NCBI GenBank assembly: GCA_964426555.1
Contig: CAYRQJ010000003.1
Location: forward strand, 1,229 to 65,228
DNA: 64,000 nucleotides
Reading direction: 5' to 3'
DNA from: an uncultured Candidatus Saccharibacteria bacterium
GTDB taxonomy: Bacteria; Patescibacteriota; Minisyncoccia; Phycocordibacterales; UBA9973
This document shows positions 6,549-53,905 of this stretch, one piece after another. The notes below the pieces were generated by a model, which did not search any database, had not been told where the DNA came from, and saw nothing but the letters and a program-made list of their open reading frames with translations. The position numbers were made by a program, and so were the translations under genes. The stretch's first letter is position 1, and each line of letters begins with the position of its first letter.

Positions 6549-9137
6549 TTAAGACTTGACAACAAAGTTAATTAATTTTCCAGAAACATATATTGTTCTT
6601 ACTATTTCACCACTTTCAAGATAATGTTTTAATTTAGGGTCCATCATTATATGGCCCACTACTGTTTCTTGGTTACTTTCCGGAGGAACCAATATTTGCC
6701 CACGTAGTTTGCCATTTACCTGCATTACAATATTTATCATCTCCTTTCGTTCTTTTAGTTTTTTTACTTTTGGCCAAGAAATATTGTGTACTGATTTATT
6801 GCTACCAAAAATTTCAAATATCTCATCTGTAACGTATGGAGCAAATGGAGCTAGTATTTTTATAAATTCAATAAAATCTTCATTTGATATTTCAAAATTT
6901 TCTTTCTCTAAAATACCCATAAATATCATCATTCCCGATATTGCGGTATTAAATTTAAATTCATTTATATCGTTAGTGACTTTATTTACAGTGTCATTTA
7001 ATGCGTATAAAATATTTTCATTTGTTTTATGTTTATTTGTTAAAACATGTTGAGAGCCACGCCAAACACGTTCAATAAATCTACGAGACCCCATTATTCC
7101 TTGTTCATTCCATGGAAGATGCGAATCAAATGGTCCAAGAAACATTTCAAATACTCGTAATGTATCTGCCCCAAATGTTTTAATAACATCATCAGGATTT
7201 ATTACATTACCCCATCTTTTGCTCATTTTTCTACCATCTGCTCCACCAATCATACCTTGGTGTCTTAGTGCACGAAACGGTTCATCTGATTTTACAAAAC
7301 CTAAATCATGCATAACTTTATGCCAAAAACGTGCATATAGTAAATGCCCAGTGTTGTGCTCGGTACCACCTACATACATATCTACTCCACCATTTTTACC
7401 AAAGAAGTAATCTAAATTTTCATTACTTGCCATGGCTTTTTTATTTTGGGGATCAGTATAACGCATAAAATACCAACTTGACCCTGCCCAGCCAGGCATA
7501 GTGTTGGTCTCGTATCCTGCCTTTACCCAATCCGGTGAATTTACTAGTGGACTTTGACCATTACCCGATGGCTTAAATGATTTCAAATTTGGAAGTACTA
7601 ATGGTAATTTCTTTACTTCATGGATCACTCCATCAATACCCCGATATAGTGGAATAGGTTCACCCCAGTAACGTTGCCGGGCAAATATTGCATCACGCAT
7701 TTTGTATTTAGTAACTATTTTACCATTAACTTTTTTTGTAATTTCTTGTTTTGCCTCTTGTGAAGTTAAACCATTAAAACTAGAAGACTCCAATAATATT
7801 CCATACCCAGTATATAAATCATCTTCTGATTTAATAACTTTTTTAATAGGTAATTTATATTTATTTGCAAATTCAAAGTCGCGCTCGTCGTGTGCAGGTA
7901 CAGCCATAACAGCACCTGTTCCATAACTAGCTATTACATAGTCCGCTACCCATACAGGCACAACTTCATTATTAGCAGGATTTATTGCATACACTCCTTT
8001 TATTTCTATTCCAGTTTTTTCTTTATTATTTTGTCTTTCTTCTTCTGTTTTATTTTTTGTTTTTTCAATATAATTTTCTATTTCTTTTTTATTTACAGAT
8101 TTATTAATTAAAGATAAAACCAAATCATGTTCGGGGGCAATCACAACATAAGTAACCCCAAACAATGTATCAGCGCGTGTTGTAAAAACTTTTATTACAT
8201 CATTTGAATCTTTTATTTTAAAATCTATCTCACTACCCACGCTTTTACCTATCCAATTTCTTTGAGTTTCTTTTGTGGAATCAAGAAAATCTACATGATT
8301 TAGACCATCCAGTAGCCTGTCTCCATATGCACTAATTCGCATAAACCACTGGCGCATAGATTTCTTTGTAACAGGGTGTTCTCCGCGCTCAGACACTGGC
8401 CCAGTAGGTGTATCAATTATTTCGTCATTTGCTAGTACTGTACCCAATTCTTCACACCAATTTACTAACGCATTACCCTCGTACGCTAAACGGTAATTCA
8501 TTAAAATATTTTGTTTTTCAATTTTTGAAAAAGTTTTCCATTCTTTATTAGAAAATTCGGCTACATCACCATGCCAAGTAGTTTCATTTATAAATTTACT
8601 TCCAGATTTTTCAAAAACTTTAATTAGTTCGTCTATATGAATAGCTTTTTGTTTTTTTGTATCAAAATAACTATTATAAATCTTTAAAAATATTTCTTGA
8701 GTAAATTTATAATATTCGGGGCTGTGTGTTGTAACCATTCTGTCCCAGTCATAAGAAAAACCAATTATGGAAAGTTGTTTTTTATACTGCTGCACTAATT
8801 TATCAGTAAAAGGCCCTGGGTGCTTACCGGTTTTTATTGCGTATTGTTCAGCCGGTAAACCAAATGAATCAAAACCCATTGGATGCAGTACATTATAGCC
8901 TTGCATGCGCTTCATGCGTGCTAATACATCACTACCAATATAACCTCGTGGGTGACCCACATGTAATCCTGCTCCTGATGGATACGGAAACATATCTAAA
9001 ACATAATAAGGTTTTAAACCTTTTTTAATGGCAATTTTTGCATCTAATGTTTTATAAACATTATCTTTTTGCCATTTTGCCATCCATTTTTTTTCAATTT
9101 TTATATGATTATATTCTTCTACTTTTTTAACTTTCAT
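6549..9137 (-). CDS. leuS: leucyl-tRNA synthetase
   Basis: 862 aa. HIGH-type motif 'HVGHPRGYIGSDVLARMKRMQGYNVLHPMGFDSFGLPAE', 'KMSKRWGNV' (KMSKS) and a CP1 editing-domain insertion. Confidence 0.9.
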   Translation of the reverse strand: MKVKKVEEYNHIKIEKKWMAKWQKDNVYKTLDAKIAIKKGLKPYYVLDMFPYPSGAGLHVGHPRGYIGSDVLARMKRMQGYNVLHPMGFDSFGLPAEQYAIKTGKHPGPFTDKLVQQYKKQLSIIGFSYDWDRMVTTHSPEYYKFTQEIFLKIYNSYFDTKKQKAIHIDELIKVFEKSGSKFINETTWHGDVAEFSNKEWKTFSKIEKQNILMNYRLAYEGNALVNWCEELGTVLANDEIIDTPTGPVSERGEHPVTKKSMRQWFMRISAYGDRLLDGLNHVDFLDSTKETQRNWIGKSVGSEIDFKIKDSNDVIKVFTTRADTLFGVTYVVIAPEHDLVLSLINKSVNKKEIENYIEKTKNKTEEERQNNKEKTGIEIKGVYAINPANNEVVPVWVADYVIASYGTGAVMAVPAHDERDFEFANKYKLPIKKVIKSEDDLYTGYGILLESSSFNGLTSQEAKQEITKKVNGKIVTKYKMRDAIFARQRYWGEPIPLYRGIDGVIHEVKKLPLVLPNLKSFKPSGNGQSPLVNSPDWVKAGYETNTMPGWAGSSWYFMRYTDPQNKKAMASNENLDYFFGKNGGVDMYVGGTEHNTGHLLYARFWHKVMHDLGFVKSDEPFRALRHQGMIGGADGRKMSKRWGNVINPDDVIKTFGADTLRVFEMFLGPFDSHLPWNEQGIMGSRRFIERVWRGSQHVLTNKHKTNENILYALNDTVNKVTNDINEFKFNTAISGMMIFMGILEKENFEISNEDFIEFIKILAPFAPYVTDEIFEIFGSNKSVHNISWPKVKKLKERKEMINIVMQVNGKLRGQILVPPESNQETVVGHIMMDPKLKHYLESGEIVRTIYVSGKLINFVVKS

Positions 9138-9140
9138 AAA

Positions 9141-10151
9141 TTAATTTTTAGAGTTGGGTGGAAATTGAACTGGATCAATTTTTTTATCAAAACATGTGTA
9201 CCCTGATTTATGATTAATAAAGCCACTGTCTGATATCATGGAATTATAATTTGGAGTAATATTAGAACTTGTATTATCAGTACTAAATGTTGCACAAATT
9301 TTATAACTAGTATCAACTAAATAAATGTACTCAATTTTATTGTTTGAAGTAATATCAGGATCGAGATATCTATTAGTTTGAGAATAATATTGATTTGCGG
9401 TAATTAAATCATTAATATTTTTAGGTATGAAACCATGTGTCTGCCAATAATCCAACACATCTCTATTCATATTGTCTAATATAGTGACTCTTTGTTCGTC
9501 GAATTGCAATTTGCGTGTATTTTGTGGACTACCAAAAACAAAGAAAGTGCATACAATAGCAGATATAACAATTAAGAAAGAAGCAACTGCAAAAATTTTG
9601 ATAGTATTTGATTTTTCTGCAACATTTCTTCTTAAATCTGTTACATAATAACCACCCACGACTCCACTAACCAATAAAATACAAAGAACCTTAACAATAA
9701 ATCTAGTTGTAATTTCTCCTCTTAAAAAATATTGCAGCAATACAATTAAATCTGTAACTACCATTATACAAGCCAGAAAAATTGTAAGATATATTACGAA
9801 TTTTCTAAAACGTAACGATGCTCTTTCTGGATTCTTTTTTAATTGTTTATTTGTATAATAAGTTAGTAAAATAAAAATAGGAAAAGAAATAATAATAATA
9901 GACAAAGGAGTGCTAAGCGATGTAAGTCCATTAGAACTACTATTATATGAAGAATAATAACTAATTCCATCTAGTGCGTCAGGCAATGCTTTATTTAATA
10001 CACGGAAAATCATGTTTAGGAATGCAGAAACAGTAGAATATAAAGTAATTATTATTCCAAACCAAAGAAAAAATTCTTGATTACTTAATTTAGGTCTTTC
10101 AATGGTAACCGGAAATGGTTGTGGTATGGGTACGTTATTATAATTATCCAT
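9141..10151 (-). CDS. hypothetical membrane protein (start moved to internal Met 'MDNYNNV')
   Basis: Hydrophobic segments throughout and no recognisable family. The 368-aa ORF would overlap the convergent DUF1003 gene by 53 nt, so the internal ATG at 10149-10151 is preferred. Confidence 0.35.
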   Translation of the reverse strand: MDNYNNVPIPQPFPVTIERPKLSNQEFFLWFGIIITLYSTVSAFLNMIFRVLNKALPDALDGISYYSSYNSSSNGLTSLSTPLSIIIISFPIFILLTYYTNKQLKKNPERASLRFRKFVIYLTIFLACIMVVTDLIVLLQYFLRGEITTRFIVKVLCILLVSGVVGGYYVTDLRRNVAEKSNTIKIFAVASFLIVISAIVCTFFVFGSPQNTRKLQFDEQRVTILDNMNRDVLDYWQTHGFIPKNINDLITANQYYSQTNRYLDPDITSNNKIEYIYLVDTSYKICATFSTDNTSSNITPNYNSMISDSGFINHKSGYTCFDKKIDPVQFPPNSKN

Positions 10152-43274: not shown

Positions 43275-44726
43275 ATGCAACATATTGAGAGTATTTTTAA
43301 TATAAAGAAATTTTCAAAAAAAGAACGGGACGTATTGGAAAAAGCGTACGATTTTGCAAAGGCAGCTCACACTGGCCAACTAAGAAAAAGCGGTGAGCCT
43401 TATTTTGTGCATGTATTTACTACTGCAAAAAATTTAGCTGAACTAAATATGGACGGTAATGTAGTAGCTGCAGGATTTTTACATGACGTACTAGAAGATA
43501 CAAAAGTTACAGAAGAAGAAATGCAGAAATCTTTTGGTGATGATATTACAAATTTGGTTTTGGGTGTTACAAAACTGGGAACTGTAAAATATAAAGGAGT
43601 TGAACGTAGTGTAGAAAATTTGCGTAAATTTTTTGTATCTATGGCTGAAGACATGCGAGTTATAATTATTAAACTTGCAGATAGATTACATAATATTGAA
43701 ACACTATCTCACGTACGAGAAGACAAACAAAAACGAATTGCACTGGAGACACTGGAAGTATACGCCCCATTAGCAGATAGATTGTCCATGGGTAAATTAA
43801 AAGGTCGTCTTGAAGATGCAGCGTTTCCTTATGCTTATCCTAAAGAATATGGCGAAGTAAAACTATTAAGAGAATCTCGTAAAGATGCGGCACTACCTGA
43901 ATTAATAAAAGTAGAAAACAATATTAAAAAAATTCTAAATCAATATTCGTTAAAACCAATTACCGTAGACCACAGAGAAAAACATTTATATTCTCTATGG
44001 AAAAAACTGCATAAATATAAAATGGATATAAACCATGTATACGACATTATAGCTATGCGTATAGTGGTAAAAAATATTGAAGAATGTTATTTGGCATTGG
44101 GGTTAATTCATGGTGCTTACAAACCCCTGCCAGGCCGTATAAAAGACTATATAGCCCTGCCAAAGCCCAATGGCTACAGATCTCTCCATACCACAATTAT
44201 TACCGAATCTGGAGCAATTATAGAAATTCAAATTAGAACTGAAGAAATGCATAACGAAGCAGAATATGGTCTTGCTGCACACTATGCATACAAAGGAAAT
44301 TTCAATACTGAAGACGAAAAATACAATTGGGTTAAAGAATTGCGTGATACTCAAAGCGAAGAAGAAACCGTTGATGGGTTTTACAAAAATTTAAAAATGG
44401 ACTTTTTTAAAGATCGAGTTTTTGCTTTTACTCCCAAAGGTGACATTGTAAATCTTCCTGACGATGGGACTGTACTAGATTTTGCTTTTAATGTTCACAG
44501 TGAAATAGGGATGCATGCTCAAGCTGGCGAAGTAAATGGTAAATTTGCTGCGCTAAACCACAAATTGGTAAATGGTGATGTTGTAAAAATAATTACCGCT
44601 AAAAATGTAAAGCCATCCAGTAAATGGCTAGAATTTGCAAAATCTACAATGGCTCGTAAACATATAGAAAAACATTTAAAACAAAATTCCCTACTTTCAA
44701 AATTTCTTTCTTTTGGACAAAAATAA
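43275..44726 (+). CDS. RelA/SpoT homolog (HD hydrolase + (p)ppGpp synthetase + TGS), short form
   Basis: 483 aa. HD 'HDVLEDT', synthetase 'DIIAMRIVV' and 'RIKDYIALPKPNGYRSLHTTI', TGS 'VFAFTPKGDIVNLPDDGTVLDFAFNVHSEIG'. Ends after TGS, with no ACT/RIS domains. Confidence 0.8.
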   Translation: MQHIESIFNIKKFSKKERDVLEKAYDFAKAAHTGQLRKSGEPYFVHVFTTAKNLAELNMDGNVVAAGFLHDVLEDTKVTEEEMQKSFGDDITNLVLGVTKLGTVKYKGVERSVENLRKFFVSMAEDMRVIIIKLADRLHNIETLSHVREDKQKRIALETLEVYAPLADRLSMGKLKGRLEDAAFPYAYPKEYGEVKLLRESRKDAALPELIKVENNIKKILNQYSLKPITVDHREKHLYSLWKKLHKYKMDINHVYDIIAMRIVVKNIEECYLALGLIHGAYKPLPGRIKDYIALPKPNGYRSLHTTIITESGAIIEIQIRTEEMHNEAEYGLAAHYAYKGNFNTEDEKYNWVKELRDTQSEEETVDGFYKNLKMDFFKDRVFAFTPKGDIVNLPDDGTVLDFAFNVHSEIGMHAQAGEVNGKFAALNHKLVNGDVVKIITAKNVKPSSKWLEFAKSTMARKHIEKHLKQNSLLSKFLSFGQK

Positions 44727-46676: not shown

Positions 46677-46759
46677 GCCCAGATGGCGGAATGGTAGACG
46701 CAGTGGACTCAAAATCCACCGTTGGCAACAACATGAGAGTTCGAGTCTCTCTCTGGGCA
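46677..46759 (+). tRNA. tRNA-Leu (anticodon CAA)
   Basis: Acceptor gcccaga/tctgggc, anticodon stem gtgga/tccac with loop cTCAAaa, long variable arm, T-arm gagag-ttcgagt-ctctc. Confidence 0.8.
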
Positions 46760-46762
46760 CAA

Positions 46763-47477: not shown

Positions 47478-48500
47478 CTATACAAATTCGGGTTCACTGG
47501 ATAGCTCTATTCCAAATTTGTCTTTTACTGTATTTATTATTGTGTTTTTAGCATTTAAAACATCATCATATGTTGCCCCGCCAAGGTTTATTAAGACCAG
47601 TGCATTCTTTTCGTATGTTCCTACATTACCAAACGATACTCCTTTTAACCCAGCATTTTCTACTAGCCAGCCAGCAGGAATTTTAACCATATCTTCGTTT
47701 ACTTCAAAACTTGGCATATCAGGGTAATCTAATTTTAGTTTATTATAAATAGATTTTTCTACAATTGGATTTTCAAAAAAAGACCCACAATTCCCCCAGT
47801 CTTCTGGGTGCGGTAATTTACTCCATCTTATTTCTATAATGGCATCTCGAATTTGTTGTAGTGTGGGATTTACTATATTTAAATTTTGGAAATATTTTTT
47901 CACCCCAGCATATTCTGGAATAGCTGGTGGTAATGTAGATAATTTTAGAATTATATCAATAATGATATATCTGCCTTTTTGTGTACTTTTAAAAATACTA
48001 TTTCTGTAGTTAAAATTACAGTCTTCATTTTTTATTGTGACTAATTTTTTTTCTAATGTGTCGTATGCAGTTAGTGATATAAAAACATCTTTTATCTCAC
48101 GTCCATACGCCCCAACATTTTGTACAGGAGTAGCTCCGGCTGTTCCTGGAATTGCAGACAATGATTCAATACCAGACAAATTATTGTCTACTGACCATTT
48201 AACTACGTCGTCCCAATTTTCTCCAGAACCTATTTTTACAAAAACTTCAGTATTATTAGTATCTACTATTTCGACACCTTTTACTTCAATTTTTAGAATA
48301 TTTAATTTTTCTACATCAGGTGACAATATAATGTTTGAACCACCACCAATCACAAAATAGTCTTCTCCAGTATGGGTATTAAAATAGTCTAATAAATTAA
48401 TTGTATTTTTAATACTAAAAACATTGGCTTTTACGTCTATTCCAAAAGTAGTAATTTGACCCAAATTTATCACCATACTGTGCAAATCCATATACAACAA
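47478..48500 (-). CDS. murB: UDP-N-acetylenolpyruvoylglucosamine reductase
   Basis: 340 aa. FAD-binding 'FVIGGGSNIILS' and C-terminal 'IPAGWLVENAGLKGVSFGNVGTYEKNALVLIN'. Confidence 0.8.
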   Translation of the reverse strand: MLYMDLHSMVINLGQITTFGIDVKANVFSIKNTINLLDYFNTHTGEDYFVIGGGSNIILSPDVEKLNILKIEVKGVEIVDTNNTEVFVKIGSGENWDDVVKWSVDNNLSGIESLSAIPGTAGATPVQNVGAYGREIKDVFISLTAYDTLEKKLVTIKNEDCNFNYRNSIFKSTQKGRYIIIDIILKLSTLPPAIPEYAGVKKYFQNLNIVNPTLQQIRDAIIEIRWSKLPHPEDWGNCGSFFENPIVEKSIYNKLKLDYPDMPSFEVNEDMVKIPAGWLVENAGLKGVSFGNVGTYEKNALVLINLGGATYDDVLNAKNTIINTVKDKFGIELSSEPEFV

Positions 48501-48526
48501 TATATCATATATGATATATTAGTACC

Positions 48527-50053
48527 ATGGCAAAAATAAAATCATTACAAAGCTACATTGGCTATTTAATTAAAACTATTCGTGAGCGTGAAGGTTTGAC
48601 TCAATCCAAATTTGCAAAAATGTTGGATACTTCACAGTCGGCAATTGCAAGAATGGAAAAAGGTGACCAAAACTTTACAACTAAAGAGCTAGAAAGAATT
48701 AGTGATACGCTTGGTGAGAGACTTATTACTATTGCTCCAAAAGTAGACGACTTTGAAGTTGTTGGTGGTAAAAAATTATCTGGATCTGTAACTACACATT
48801 ATTCTAAAAATGGAGCATTGGCGTTAATGGCGGCGGCATTATTAAACGAAAATACAACTACTTTGTATGGTATTCCAAGAATAGAAGAAGTTTTTCGTTT
48901 TATAGAAGTTTTTGAAAGTATTGATATTAAAATAACTTGGATAGACGACCATACATTGCGCATTACCCCACCAGAAAAATTTGATATTGAAAACATCGAC
49001 GAAAAAATAGCCGGAGGAATTCGTGTAAATTTATATCTTATTCCACCATTAGCTCATAAAATGAAGGAATTTCGTTTACCAAATCCAGGCGGATGTAAAA
49101 TGGGAGAAAGAACAATTTCTGCACATAAATACGCACTGGAAAAATTTGGTATTAAAATCAAATCTGAAGCTAAACATTATTTAGTTAAAAATTCTAAATT
49201 AAAATCAGCCGACATTACACTGTATGAAGCGTCAGACATGGCTGCAATTAATGCACTTATGGCGGCGGCACTAATTCCGGGTAAAACAATAATTCGTTTT
49301 GCTCCACCAAATTACCAAGTACAAGATGTATGTTTCTTTTTAAAACATTTAGGTGTACGCATAGAAGGTATTGGCACAACTACACTAACAGTGTACGGCG
49401 TAGAATACATTAACGAAGAGACTGAATGGTATAACAGTGAAGACCCAATTGAAAGTATGTTTTTCTTAGCGGCTGGTATTGTTACAGGTAGTAGTATAAC
49501 TATAAAAAGATGCCCTATTGAATTTTTACGTCTTGAAATGTTAAAGCTAGAAAAGATGGGATTAAAGTATACAATGTCTAAAATTTACAAAGGCCAAAAT
49601 GGTCATGTGGATTTAGTAGATATAAAAATAAAAGAAAGTAAATTACGTGCACTACCGGACAAAATCCATGCATTACCTTTCCCGGGAATAAATAACGACA
49701 ATTTACCTTTCTTTGTGCCTATTTCAGCTGTTGCCAAAGGTACTACTTTAATCCACGACTGGACATGGGAAAATAGAGCAATCTATTTTACCGAACTTAA
49801 CCGTCTTGGAGCTAAAGTATTACTGGCTGACCCACACCGTGTATATGTAGAAGGTGGTAGCGAATTACGCGGAGCACAAATTGTATGTCCACCGGCACTA
49901 CGCCCGGCTACAATTATTCTTATTGCCATGCTTGCAGCCGAAGGTAAATCAATACTACGTAATGTATACGCTATTAACCGTGGATACGAAGGCTTGATAG
50001 AAAGACTAACTGAATTAGGTGCTGAAGTAAGCCAAGTCCAAAATCTAAGTTAG
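48527..50053 (+). CDS. murA: UDP-N-acetylglucosamine 1-carboxyvinyltransferase (MurA) with N-terminal XRE-type HTH domain fusion
   Basis: 508 aa. Residues ~10-65 'LIKTIREREGLTQSKFAKMLDTSQSAIARMEKGDQNFTTKELERISDTLGERL' form an HTH_XRE. The remainder is the EPT fold with the catalytic Cys loop 'NPGGCKMGERTISAHKYAL' and 'KNGALALMAAALL'. Confidence 0.7.
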   Translation: MAKIKSLQSYIGYLIKTIREREGLTQSKFAKMLDTSQSAIARMEKGDQNFTTKELERISDTLGERLITIAPKVDDFEVVGGKKLSGSVTTHYSKNGALALMAAALLNENTTTLYGIPRIEEVFRFIEVFESIDIKITWIDDHTLRITPPEKFDIENIDEKIAGGIRVNLYLIPPLAHKMKEFRLPNPGGCKMGERTISAHKYALEKFGIKIKSEAKHYLVKNSKLKSADITLYEASDMAAINALMAAALIPGKTIIRFAPPNYQVQDVCFFLKHLGVRIEGIGTTTLTVYGVEYINEETEWYNSEDPIESMFFLAAGIVTGSSITIKRCPIEFLRLEMLKLEKMGLKYTMSKIYKGQNGHVDLVDIKIKESKLRALPDKIHALPFPGINNDNLPFFVPISAVAKGTTLIHDWTWENRAIYFTELNRLGAKVLLADPHRVYVEGGSELRGAQIVCPPALRPATIILIAMLAAEGKSILRNVYAINRGYEGLIERLTELGAEVSQVQNLS

Positions 50054-50054
50054 T

Positions 50055-50972
50055 ATGAAAAAAGTTATTGTAGTTTGTGGACAAACAGCTACTGGTAAAA
50101 GTGATTTAGCTGTAAGTATTGCGCTGAAACTAAAGCAACAAAATATTAATACTGAAATTATTTCTGCAGATTCACGCCAAGTATACATTGGCGCTGATAT
50201 GACAAGTGCAAAAATTACACAGAGTGAAATGTGTGGTGTACTCCACCATATGATTTCCGTTACATCATTTAAAAAAGACTATACAGTAGCTGATTATAAA
50301 AAAACTGTAACAAAAATAATAAATAAATTACACAAACAAAATATTGTGCCTATTCTTTGTGGTGGAACAGGGCTATATATTGATAATGTAATTTATAATA
50401 ATAGTATTCCCGAAGTATTACCAAATGCAGAATTGCGCGTGAAATTAGAGAAATTAAGTACCGAAGATTTATTTAATATACTAAAAAAGAAGGATCCAAA
50501 TCGTGCAAAAAACATAGATAGTAAAAATAAAAGAAGAATTATTCGAGCACTAGAAATAGTTGAAGTTTTGGGTTATGTCCCCCAAAATGAAACACCCATT
50601 TTAAATTATGAAACATTGTTTATAGGGTTAAAGCTAGAGAACGAAGAATTAAAAAATAGAATAACAAAACGCACCAATAAAAGAATACGTGCAGGAATGG
50701 TAGATGAGATAGTATCTCTACACAATAAAGAAAAATTAAGTTACGTTAGAATTGCCAGTTTTGGTATGGAATTTAAATGGCTGTCTTTATATGCAGAAAA
50801 TTTAATTAATAAAGATGAATGTATAAATGGAATAAATAAAGATAGTTTAGCCTATGCCAAGCGCCAATTAACCTGGTTTAAAAGAAATAAAGACATAAAC
50901 TGGCTAAATCCATTAAAGAAAGCAGATTTAAACAAACAAGCTATTAAATTGGTAAAAGATTTTATAAAATAG
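50055..50972 (+). CDS. miaA: tRNA dimethylallyltransferase
   Basis: 305 aa. P-loop 'VIVVCGQTATGKSDLAVSIA' and 'ISADSRQVYIGADMTSAK'. Start is 2 nt after the murA stop. Confidence 0.85.
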   Translation: MKKVIVVCGQTATGKSDLAVSIALKLKQQNINTEIISADSRQVYIGADMTSAKITQSEMCGVLHHMISVTSFKKDYTVADYKKTVTKIINKLHKQNIVPILCGGTGLYIDNVIYNNSIPEVLPNAELRVKLEKLSTEDLFNILKKKDPNRAKNIDSKNKRRIIRALEIVEVLGYVPQNETPILNYETLFIGLKLENEELKNRITKRTNKRIRAGMVDEIVSLHNKEKLSYVRIASFGMEFKWLSLYAENLINKDECINGINKDSLAYAKRQLTWFKRNKDINWLNPLKKADLNKQAIKLVKDFIK

Positions 50973-50974
50973 TG

Positions 50975-51045
50975 CGGGCGATGGAGGAATCGGACCCCCA
51001 CCAAAGGTTTTGGAGACCTTCGTTCTACCACTAAACTAATCGCCC
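50975..51045 (-). tRNA. tRNA-Trp (anticodon CCA)
   Basis: Reverse complement: acceptor gggcgat/atcgccc, anticodon stem aaggt/acctt with loop cTCCAaa, T-arm ggggg-tccgatt-cctcc. Confidence 0.75.
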
Positions 51046-52783: not shown

Positions 52784-53905
52784 TTACTTTATTGCAATTC
52801 TCTTTATATTTGGGTTAATCCTGGTGACTATTTCATAGTTAATAGTACCGGCTAACCCAGCTACTTCGTCTGCTGTAATCTCTGCTTTGCCGTGTTTACC
52901 TATTATTGTAGCAGTATCCCCTGATTTTATGTTTTTAACAGCTGTAGCGTCTACTACACACATATTCATCATTACGCGACCTAAGATTTTACATTTAACA
53001 CCGCCACAAATTACATAACCAGTGTTAGACAATATTCGTGGTACCCCGTCCCAATACCCCACAGGTAATATTGCAATTTTCATTTTGTTTTTTGCAACAA
53101 ATGTAGCATTGTACGCCACAACATCACCCTTTGATATAACTTTCACTTGGGCAACTTTTGTTTTCCAAGACAAAGCCGGGGTTAGTTTTAATTTATTACC
53201 AATAGCTTTTTTTACTTCCATATCTGGCCATAAGCCATACATTCCAATTCCCACACGCACCATATCAAACGCTAAGTCATGATTCATTACAAAACCAGAT
53301 GTGGCACTAATATGAACTATTGGGTAATAATCGCGCTGATTAAATTCGTCTTGCCAAATTTTTATTTTTTCTGTTTGTTCTTTTGTAATTTTATTGAACT
53401 TTTTATTTTCTGCTCCAACAAAATGAGAATATATTGCAACAATATTTAAATCTATATTTTCTTTTAGAATTTTTAATACAGCTGGTAAATCTTCCATTAG
53501 CATTCCTTGTCTTGAAAGACCAGTATCTATTTTAAGATGAATTAAAAAGTTTGCTTTGTTTTTATTTTTTACTATTTTGTTTAATGTAACAAGCGATGCA
53601 ACAGTAATGTCTAATTTGTATTTTAGTGCTGTATCAAATTCGTCTTCTTCAATTTGCTTTAGTACAAGTATTGGTACTGATTTATAAGTTTTGCGCAACA
53701 CAACTGCGTCCGCAATATCAAAAACTGCTAAATAATCTACCCCAGCTCTTACGGCAGCATCTGCACATATATCCATACCATGACCATACGCATTGGCTTT
53801 AACCACTGCCATAAGCATAGTATTTTTGGGTAAAATTTTCTCGTAATTTTTAATATTACTTTGAACCGCACTACTACTAATTTCTACCCATGTTTTTTCA
53901 TTCAT
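52784..53905 (-). CDS. alr: alanine racemase
   Basis: 373 aa. PLP-lysine motif 'MAVVKANAYGHG' near the N-terminus and a C-terminal beta domain. Confidence 0.85.
   Translation of the reverse strand: MNEKTWVEISSSAVQSNIKNYEKILPKNTMLMAVVKANAYGHGMDICADAAVRAGVDYLAVFDIADAVVLRKTYKSVPILVLKQIEEDEFDTALKYKLDITVASLVTLNKIVKNKNKANFLIHLKIDTGLSRQGMLMEDLPAVLKILKENIDLNIVAIYSHFVGAENKKFNKITKEQTEKIKIWQDEFNQRDYYPIVHISATSGFVMNHDLAFDMVRVGIGMYGLWPDMEVKKAIGNKLKLTPALSWKTKVAQVKVISKGDVVAYNATFVAKNKMKIAILPVGYWDGVPRILSNTGYVICGGVKCKILGRVMMNMCVVDATAVKNIKSGDTATIIGKHGKAEITADEVAGLAGTINYEIVTRINPNIKRIAIK

Follow-up and report, generated by a model that had tools for sequence, protein, structure and literature searches.

The 64,000-nucleotide (nt) stretch of contig CAYRQJ010000003.1 analysed here (hereafter the window; 32.5% G+C) encodes a protein in which a helix-turn-helix (HTH) domain of the XRE/Cro-C1 type is joined to MurA, the committed enzyme of peptidoglycan synthesis. 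Comparison of this gene with its relatives makes it probable that the protein is both a MurA enzyme and a repressor of its own gene, that is, a trigger enzyme. The HTH domain is conserved along with the enzyme, and a palindrome that could serve as its operator accompanies the fused gene from species to species.

Architecture and spread of the fused MurA

The fused gene and its parts are as follows (positions in the window, with amino acid, aa, numbering of the product).
48527-50053, + strand: HTH-MurA gene, an unbroken open reading frame (ORF) with an ATG start, 508 aa plus stop codon
48545-48712, + strand: XRE/Cro-C1 HTH domain, aa 7-62 (Pfam HTH_3 and helices of the AlphaFold2 model)
48713-48745, + strand: flexible linker of about 11 residues, aa 63-73 (low model confidence, low column identity)
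48746-50041, + strand: MurA (enolpyruvyl transferase) domain, aa 74-505 (NCBIfam, Protein Data Bank and Foldseek matches)
49079-49117, + strand: catalytic loop PNPGGCKMGERTI, aa 185-197 (mapped to E. coli MurA)

By the tests applied, the protein belongs to both the MurA family and the XRE HTH family. Pfam recognized HTH_3 (PF01381) at aa 15-64 (E 2e-11; 44.2 bits vs a cut-off of 23) and EPSP_synthase (PF00275) at aa 80-494 (E 1e-46), while the NCBIfam MurA subfamily PRK09369 matched aa 74-505 with 315.2 bits, exceeding its cut-off of 297. Sequence matches in the Protein Data Bank (PDB) were to MurA only and spanned aa 75-505. The sequence-only reading, with an XRE HTH fused in frame to an entire MurA, was thus borne out by the unbroken ORF and the two Pfam domains.

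The AlphaFold2 model, built on 111 homologues, reached a predicted local distance difference test score (pLDDT) of 89.6 and a predicted template-modelling score of 0.82. Its MurA body is confidently modelled, and the HTH forms an independent unit on a low-confidence linker (pLDDT around 61 for aa 63-73, and below 50 at aa 68-71). That the N-terminal region would fold as an HTH had been put forward for checking by AlphaFold, and the model gave the expected four helices (aa 7-21, 26-32, 37-45 and 52-62) at pLDDT 86-90, with QSAIARMEK (aa 37-45) as the recognition helix. Foldseek searches with the model returned only MurA structures as top matches, with target-normalised TM-scores (template-modelling scores) of 0.86-0.92. 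The closest solved relatives of the HTH are the dimeric DNA-binding repressors Stl, C.Esp1396I, PezA and HipB.

The enzyme part looks functional, since the mapped catalytic residues are all present and invariant, and the sequence evidence favours a catalytically competent MurA. Pairwise alignment placed K22, N23, R91, C115, R120, D305, R371 and R397 of E. coli MurA at K94, N95, R166, C190, R195, D391, R459 and R485 of the window protein; the numbering of the E. coli reference sequence agreed at every queried position. All eight residues are invariant in the 111-sequence alignment, as are G188, G189, C190, G193 and R195 of the catalytic loop. The retention of the catalytic cysteine loop (PGGCKMGERTI), proposed earlier, is therefore correct, with Cys190 aligned to Cys115 of E. 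coli.

To our knowledge, MurA enzymes described so far are about 420 aa long, carry no DNA-binding domain and do not act on DNA. The sequence-only reading had likewise noted that MurA normally stands alone; the fusion is nevertheless no rarity of this genome. All of the 120 best database homologues (59-98% identity, about 500-520 aa) share the PF00275 plus PF01381 architecture, and their source names include Nomurabacteria, Zambryskibacteria, Magasanikbacteria and Parcubacteria. A GTDB scan with one genome per species found at least 575 relatives, and the best 80 loci, which were examined, are all fused, matching from residue 1-11 or so to residue 501-508 unless cut by a contig end. The titles of these loci, mostly Patescibacteria-labelled, include Nomura-, Zambryski-, Uhr- and Yanofskybacteria, Paceibacteria and Minisyncoccia. 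Judged from these sequences, the fusion is conserved in relatives and is the standard form of MurA in a very large, mostly Patescibacteria-labelled clade. A search of 1.84 billion cluster representatives recovered fused relatives down to 31% identity and a few close unfused ones (P0121, P0123, P0124 and P0126). Public annotations name some of these proteins 'helix-turn-helix domain-containing protein', so that the architecture is visible in databases.

The HTH is constrained as strongly as the enzyme, while the linker and the N-terminal tail drift. In 100 homologues, around 60% identical overall, the HTH is 63% and the MurA part 62% identical to the window protein; column identity is 0.72 in the HTH and 0.77 in MurA, compared with 0.45 in the linker and 0.33 in the N-terminal tail. 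The XRE signature residues R19, Q26, T35, Q37, R42, E44, G46, Q48 and N49 are invariant in 111 homologues. It is extremely improbable that the fusion is an artefact, whether a frameshift, a mis-assembly or a mis-called start joining a small XRE gene to murA: the same frame, the same length (about 500-520 aa) and the same linker recur in more than 100 independent NCBI, JGI, ENA and Logan assemblies, and the same fusion is found in finished Nonomuraea genomes.

The palindrome at the murA promoter

The following features bear on the regulation of the fused gene.
48501-48518, no strand: predicted operator, the perfect 18-bp palindrome TATATCATATATGATATA; 20 bp as ATATATCATATATGATATAT at 48500-48519
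48491-48520, + strand: promoter-like site, TATACA, an 18-nt spacer and TG-n-TATATT (consensus scan)
47478-48491, - strand: murB, with MurB_C and FAD_binding_4 domains, divergent from murA

The start codons of murB and murA are separated by 35 nt, and it was in this interval that a palindromic operator had been suggested for searching. The predicted operator was found there, 8 nt from the ATG of murA and 9 nt from that of murB, with half-sites arranged as TATATCA-N4-TGATATA. It occurs exactly once in the window, where 0.26 matches with up to three mismatches are expected by chance.

The 100 nt upstream of the fused gene were lined up in 78 species loci. In 75 of them the 18-mer, with at most two mismatches, was found no more than 150 nt ahead of the fused gene: 33 sites are exact, 30 have a single change and 12 have two. 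This holds regardless of the upstream gene or the local G+C content, and the modal gap to the ATG is 8 nt. Of the three remaining loci, two have the site farther upstream, at 360 nt (L010) and 191 nt (L025), and the contig of L011 holds only 281 nt upstream. With these two distant sites, only 10 matches with up to three mismatches were found elsewhere in 516 kb. Perfect half-site matches in related loci are similarly concentrated, 60 of the 63 lying at the murA promoter. In roughly half of the related loci murB diverges from the site, in four it follows murA, and the others lack it; since it adjoins the site in only about half of the loci, the palindrome tracks HTH-murA and not murB. In the window, murB is probably co-regulated from the same palindrome.

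A second candidate operator, ATATCAATAATGATAT, was considered inside murB (47953-47968), with perfect half-sites and 549 nt from the predicted operator. Among the close relatives checked, L005 alone has it as well, whereas L001-L004 and L006-L008 lack it. This element is probably a chance product of Ile/Asp codons and was rejected.

The changes that the operator has accepted are informative. Seven of the 12 two-change operators are still perfect palindromes, and the chance that a second change restores symmetry is about 2% in each case. The symmetric variants are TATAGCATATATGCTATA (L071), TATCTCATATATGAGATA (L068), a TTAA centre (L063) and the symmetric CACATGTG centres of L015, L023, L057 and L078. 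As the double changes keep the palindrome, even when counted as about five independent events, these sequences argue strongly for selection on dyad symmetry, a property that a promoter element acting in one direction could do without. In L068 and L071 the symmetric half-site changes accompany unusual recognition helices (TSQSSIPRME and TTQSTIARIE, respectively); this covariation of helix 3 with the half-site comprises two cases and is only suggestive. A simple recognition code between helix 3 and half-site was discarded, given that A39T alone (L051) and A41N (L081 and L156) occur with the consensus site.

It is rather unlikely that the palindrome is instead a promoter element, made of back-to-back extended -10 boxes, or the site of another factor, with the HTH serving protein contacts or nucleoid tethering. 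The right half does fit TG-n-TATAAT, divergent genes begin 8 and 9 nt away, and similar -35/extended -10 promoters are seen in related genomes. The left half, however, is equally conserved where there is no divergent gene, symmetric double substitutions are retained, and the motif is absent from the other promoters of the window and the loci. The motif also recurs at unrelated operons encoding the same HTH type and is kept in genomes of 70% G+C, where a generic promoter would be expected to differ, and the DNA-contacting XRE signature residues are invariant even where catalysis has been lost. An earlier alternative, in which the HTH was repurposed for protein interaction, is disfavoured by the operator evidence. 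A RodZ-like role (an XRE HTH binding MreB) was also set aside, as no HTH_25 match was obtained and the operator evidence favours DNA binding.

The promoter-like site overlaps the palindrome, its extended -10 TATATT (48515-48520) lying in the right half with the A of the murA ATG 7 nt after it; promoter-like matches of this kind are no more frequent than expected from shuffled sequence. A leaderless murA mRNA is tentatively suggested by this -10 element and by the 8-nt spacing of the palindrome to the ATG. The lack of a Shine-Dalgarno motif was rejected as an argument for it because such motifs are rare before all genes and therefore uninformative: they precede one of the 78 murA starts and 7% of the other ORFs in related loci, and GGAG, GAGG or AGGA was found 4-17 nt before the first ATG in none of the 38 window ORFs of at least 200 aa. 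Shine-Dalgarno-led initiation seems, from these counts, to be rare in this lineage.

Variant palindromes such as TATCTCATATATGGTATA were also observed downstream of murB, at L051 1064-1081, L065 1748, L067 1604, L071 480 and L040 6237. They are -35/extended -10 promoter-like, come with AGGAGG and precede unrelated small or unknown ORFs, and they may be weak operators or plain promoters. The 276-aa protein encoded 3' of the L051 variant gave no Pfam match.

Relatives and neighbours of the fused gene

Some fused homologues with 31-52% identity to the window protein (P0129, P0130, P0132, P0139, P0142, P0175, P0186 and P0271-P0274) keep all 11 HTH signature residues and have lost the GGC loop, R91 and R120, most of them also R371 and/or R397. 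The non-catalytic fused genes that were placed in their contexts are the following.
L201, 10001-11518: non-catalytic fused gene
L202, 3498-5003: non-catalytic fused gene
L205, 7001-8467: non-catalytic fused gene
L207, 7001-8554: non-catalytic fused gene
L206, 713-2260: non-catalytic fused gene, on a stretch too short to be judged for the palindrome

A palindrome of this type was present at the non-catalytic homologues in three of the four contexts examined. In L201 the gene is divergent from murD, two more Mur ligase genes, a stand-alone murA (437 aa, cysteine kept) and murB, with TATATCATACATGATATA 8 nt before its ATG. L202 is similar, the gene being divergent from a mur cluster that includes a stand-alone MurA with its cysteine, and with the site 5 nt before the ATG. 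In L205, which represents the most divergent group, AATATCAAATATGATATA lies 18 nt before the ATG, and in L207 the site heads an operon of NUDIX, nucleotidyltransferase and HTH-pseudoMurA genes. The non-catalytic fused homologues thus appear, from residues and gene context, to be regulators. Because the fold was retained after catalysis was lost, a structural or sensory role of the MurA fold in these proteins is pointed to, and in a few lineages the fusion would have evolved further into a non-catalytic regulator. Neither of the two unfused close relatives inspected (L203 and L204) has the site at up to three mismatches. The converse arrangement was seen in P0127 (529 aa), where the MurA catalytic residues are intact and the N-terminal HTH lacks the signature residues.

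These homologues bear on an unlikely, though not negligible, alternative, namely that the HTH binds the palindrome but activates, or controls a wider set of cell-wall genes, the protein being mainly a pathway regulator and incidentally catalytic. Non-catalytic homologues do stand beside whole mur clusters, one ends the NUDIX and nucleotidyltransferase operon, and L040, L051, L065 and L071 have variant sites ahead of other genes. On the other hand, most loci have the site at a distance of 0-33 nt from the start codon, overlapping the predicted -10, a position typical of a repressor, and there is a single site in the window and almost none elsewhere in the 516 kb. A wider regulon was not adopted, as the secondary sites of L051, L065, L067 and L071 resemble common promoters of the -35/extended -10 kind, accompanied by a Shine-Dalgarno motif.

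The fusion is also found in cultured bacteria, Nonomuraea WP_214634277.1 being one example. A cluster of 246 members at 48% identity consists of Nonomuraea species (Actinomycetota), with the catalytic residues intact. In five loci from four Nonomuraea genomes (L208-L212; 69-73% G+C) the fused gene is preceded, at a distance of 13-46 nt, by the AT-rich inverted repeat ATCTCATATGTGAGAT, which is the same in all of them whereas the flanks diverge. The repeat has the half-site variant seen in L068 and is the only such site in each locus of 9-17 kb; one example is given below.
L208 (Nonomuraea): inverted repeat 7972-7987, fused gene 8001-9530
The Nonomuraea gene has, in every case, a formyltransferase/enoyl-CoA-hydratase fusion gene on one side and a phage-type integrase gene on the other and, given these neighbours, may have been acquired horizontally.

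An exact-pattern scan of metagenome contigs for TATATCAYATRTGATATA returned at least 126 sites in at least 120 stretches. Among the 126 sites listed, 23 precede HTH-murA genes, and a further 23 stand before Gp49-toxin/XRE-antitoxin operons or lone small XRE genes. The assignment of the Gp49 toxin rests on PF05973 (E 4e-20 and 6e-25 for the two tested), and the small XRE HTHs at the palindrome are 36-46% identical to aa 11-66 of the window protein. The operons of a Gp49 toxin and an XRE antitoxin were seen in L106, L107, L110, L133, L136, L149, L152, L167, L169, L170, L180, L189 and L192. In many of the Gp49 operons the predicted start codon of the toxin is an ATG inside the palindrome, the products beginning MIYN.

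XRE antitoxins of toxin-antitoxin operons classically repress their own operon at a palindrome. Like the Gp49 (HigB/RelE-like) XRE antitoxins, the window protein has a homologous HTH and an identical palindrome at its own promoter; unlike them, its partner is a 430-aa enzyme domain fused in cis. Its top HTH-only NCBIfam match is TIGR03070, a toxin-antitoxin antitoxin family. An antitoxin identity was nonetheless rejected, since no toxin gene is adjacent and the neighbours are murB and miaA; Gp49 toxin genes were seen only at the separate operons with the palindrome on other contigs. The HTH and its operator were probably captured by a MurA from a Gp49-toxin/XRE-antitoxin module, and such modules might cross-talk with HTH-MurA in a genome that has both.

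The neighbourhood in the window, a divergent murB and a downstream miaA, is as had been described, with the latter beginning 1 nt past the murA stop codon.
50055-50972, + strand: miaA, with an IPPT domain
miaA is probably co-transcribed with murA; their adjacency is kept only in the closest relatives and a few others. A tRNA-Trp(CCA) gene (50974-51045, - strand) starts 2 nt past the miaA stop codon on the opposite strand, and a tRNA-Leu(CAA) gene (46677-46760, + strand) lies between parB and an unknown gene upstream of murB. Genes for a RelA/SpoT homologue (43275-44726, + strand) and an alanine racemase (52784-53905, - strand) were noted within 5 kb of murA, and in L205 a RelA/SpoT gene is directly 5' of the fused gene. 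No second murA was found within the window, and this, like the adjacent murB, is context in favour of a MurA function for the fused gene.

A putative trigger enzyme of the peptidoglycan pathway

Autoregulatory DNA binding had been one of the possibilities raised for this protein at the outset, and it is now favoured by the palindrome conserved at the 75 loci and in Nonomuraea. From comparative genomics we infer that the window protein binds the palindrome, that it does so as a dimer and that binding represses. A dimer would place its two HTHs on the half-sites TATATCA and TGATATA; these coincide in part with the core promoter or the start region of murA and, in the window, also of murB. The occupied site would block RNA polymerase and thereby curb production of both the enzyme itself and MurB, resulting in negative autoregulation of entry into the peptidoglycan pathway.

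The MurA step is tightly controlled, and the enzyme binds the downstream product UDP-N-acetylmuramic acid (UDP-MurNAc). More speculatively, the open or closed state of the MurA domain in the fused protein might tune DNA binding, and the enzyme domain would then act as the sensor; candidate ligands are UDP-N-acetylglucosamine (UDP-GlcNAc), phosphoenolpyruvate (PEP) and the UDP-MurNAc/PEP-Cys 'dormant' complex. PDB titles among the Foldseek matches include MurA from several species with UDP-MurNAc/PEP-Cys complexes. A ligand switch is plausible because MurAs crystallise as such tight complexes. MurB, encoded in the window at the same operator, makes UDP-MurNAc as its product. That ligand-driven closure of MurA, or the UDP-MurNAc/PEP-Cys complex, modulates DNA binding is offered as a tentative proposal.

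Several observations weigh against an autorepressing MurA of this kind. The equivalog TIGR01072 scores 301 bits, under its cut-off of 392.7. The gap between site and ATG ranges from -8 to +89 nt, with no single promoter geometry. The right half-site also reads as the extended -10 element TGATATATT, and part of its conservation could come from promoter rather than operator function; sequences similar to the motif occur at the promoter-like secondary sites of L051, L065, L067 and L071. Among the listed metagenome sites, 80 of the 126 adjoin unrelated genes or none, and the palindrome sequence alone is not specific. The contexts of these 80, judged by eye, are AT-rich, non-coding or heterogeneous (e.g., a Crp-like regulator, an RNase H-like protein, an aminotransferase and an ScpA-like protein), and they look like chance or unrelated occurrences. 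As to the ligand, the non-catalytic homologues have lost PEP-binding arginines and may not sense the same one.

The nearest known systems are the trigger enzymes BirA (biotin protein ligase and repressor of the bio operon), PutA, NadR and archaeal RbkR (PMC5397151, PMC8249747). Like these, the window protein combines a pathway enzyme and an N-terminal DNA-binding domain in one polypeptide and appears to have its palindrome at promoters of its own pathway, here murA/murB, as do its relatives at the mur clusters of L201 and L202. It differs from them in its enolpyruvyl transferase fold, in the peptidoglycan pathway and in having an XRE/Cro-C1 domain instead of a winged HTH or a ribbon-helix-helix. 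The co-repressor of BirA is a reaction intermediate that drives dimerisation, whereas the effector of HTH-MurA is only a proposal. NrtR-type regulators join a Nudix-like effector domain to an HTH (PMC2330246); in these an enzyme fold is reused as the sensor, which parallels the non-catalytic HTH-MurA homologues. The families are unrelated, however, and the enzyme domain of the window protein still looks fully catalytic.

Stand-alone MurA (E. coli, E. cloacae and the Gram-positive MurAA) has the same fold and the same catalytic residues as the MurA domain of the fused protein. It forms the 'dormant' UDP-MurNAc/PEP-Cys complex (PMC9975281) and is under post-translational control by IreK/ReoM/ClpCP (PMC12077105). 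Known control of MurA thus comprises feedback inhibition, phosphorylation-dependent partners and proteolysis, whereas the control proposed for HTH-MurA is transcriptional. A weak NCBIfam match to PRK08154, presumably a family of regulators in which an XRE-HTH is fused to a shikimate-kinase-like domain, is confined to the HTH; the enzyme domain and the pathway of those fusions are different. A full-text literature search found no description of the MurA-HTH fusion, its operator or its non-catalytic relatives.

A more far-reaching possibility, held with clearly less confidence than autorepression itself, is that the MurA fold is the ligand-sensing module of a previously unrecognised family of transcription factors. 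In most of the sampled Patescibacteria-labelled genomes, one protein might then both catalyse the first step of the pathway and read the UDP-sugar pool to set murA/murB transcription, and in some lineages these tasks might have been split between a non-catalytic regulator and a stand-alone enzyme. The regulon can be judged within the 7-20 kb of sequence covered for each related genome. Cross-regulation between toxin-antitoxin modules and the synthesis of cell-wall precursors is also conceivable in these minimal genomes, because antitoxins with a related HTH use the identical operator.

What is known of how bacteria set the flux into peptidoglycan comes mostly from a few model organisms, in which MurA is controlled post-translationally. 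Database entries annotated as 'MurA' and about 500 aa long deserve caution, being putative DNA-binding proteins and in some cases probably not enzymes. If the proposal is correct, it would clearly illustrate how an enzyme can turn into a non-catalytic regulator in evolution, and cultured Nonomuraea, which carry the same fusion and a matching operator, would make the system tractable. A very large share of the bacterial tree, most of it uncultured, would be using its committed enzyme as a transcription factor on a defined and nearly unvarying operator, which would give the Patescibacteria, bacteria with very few regulators, a rare regulatory circuit that is directly testable.

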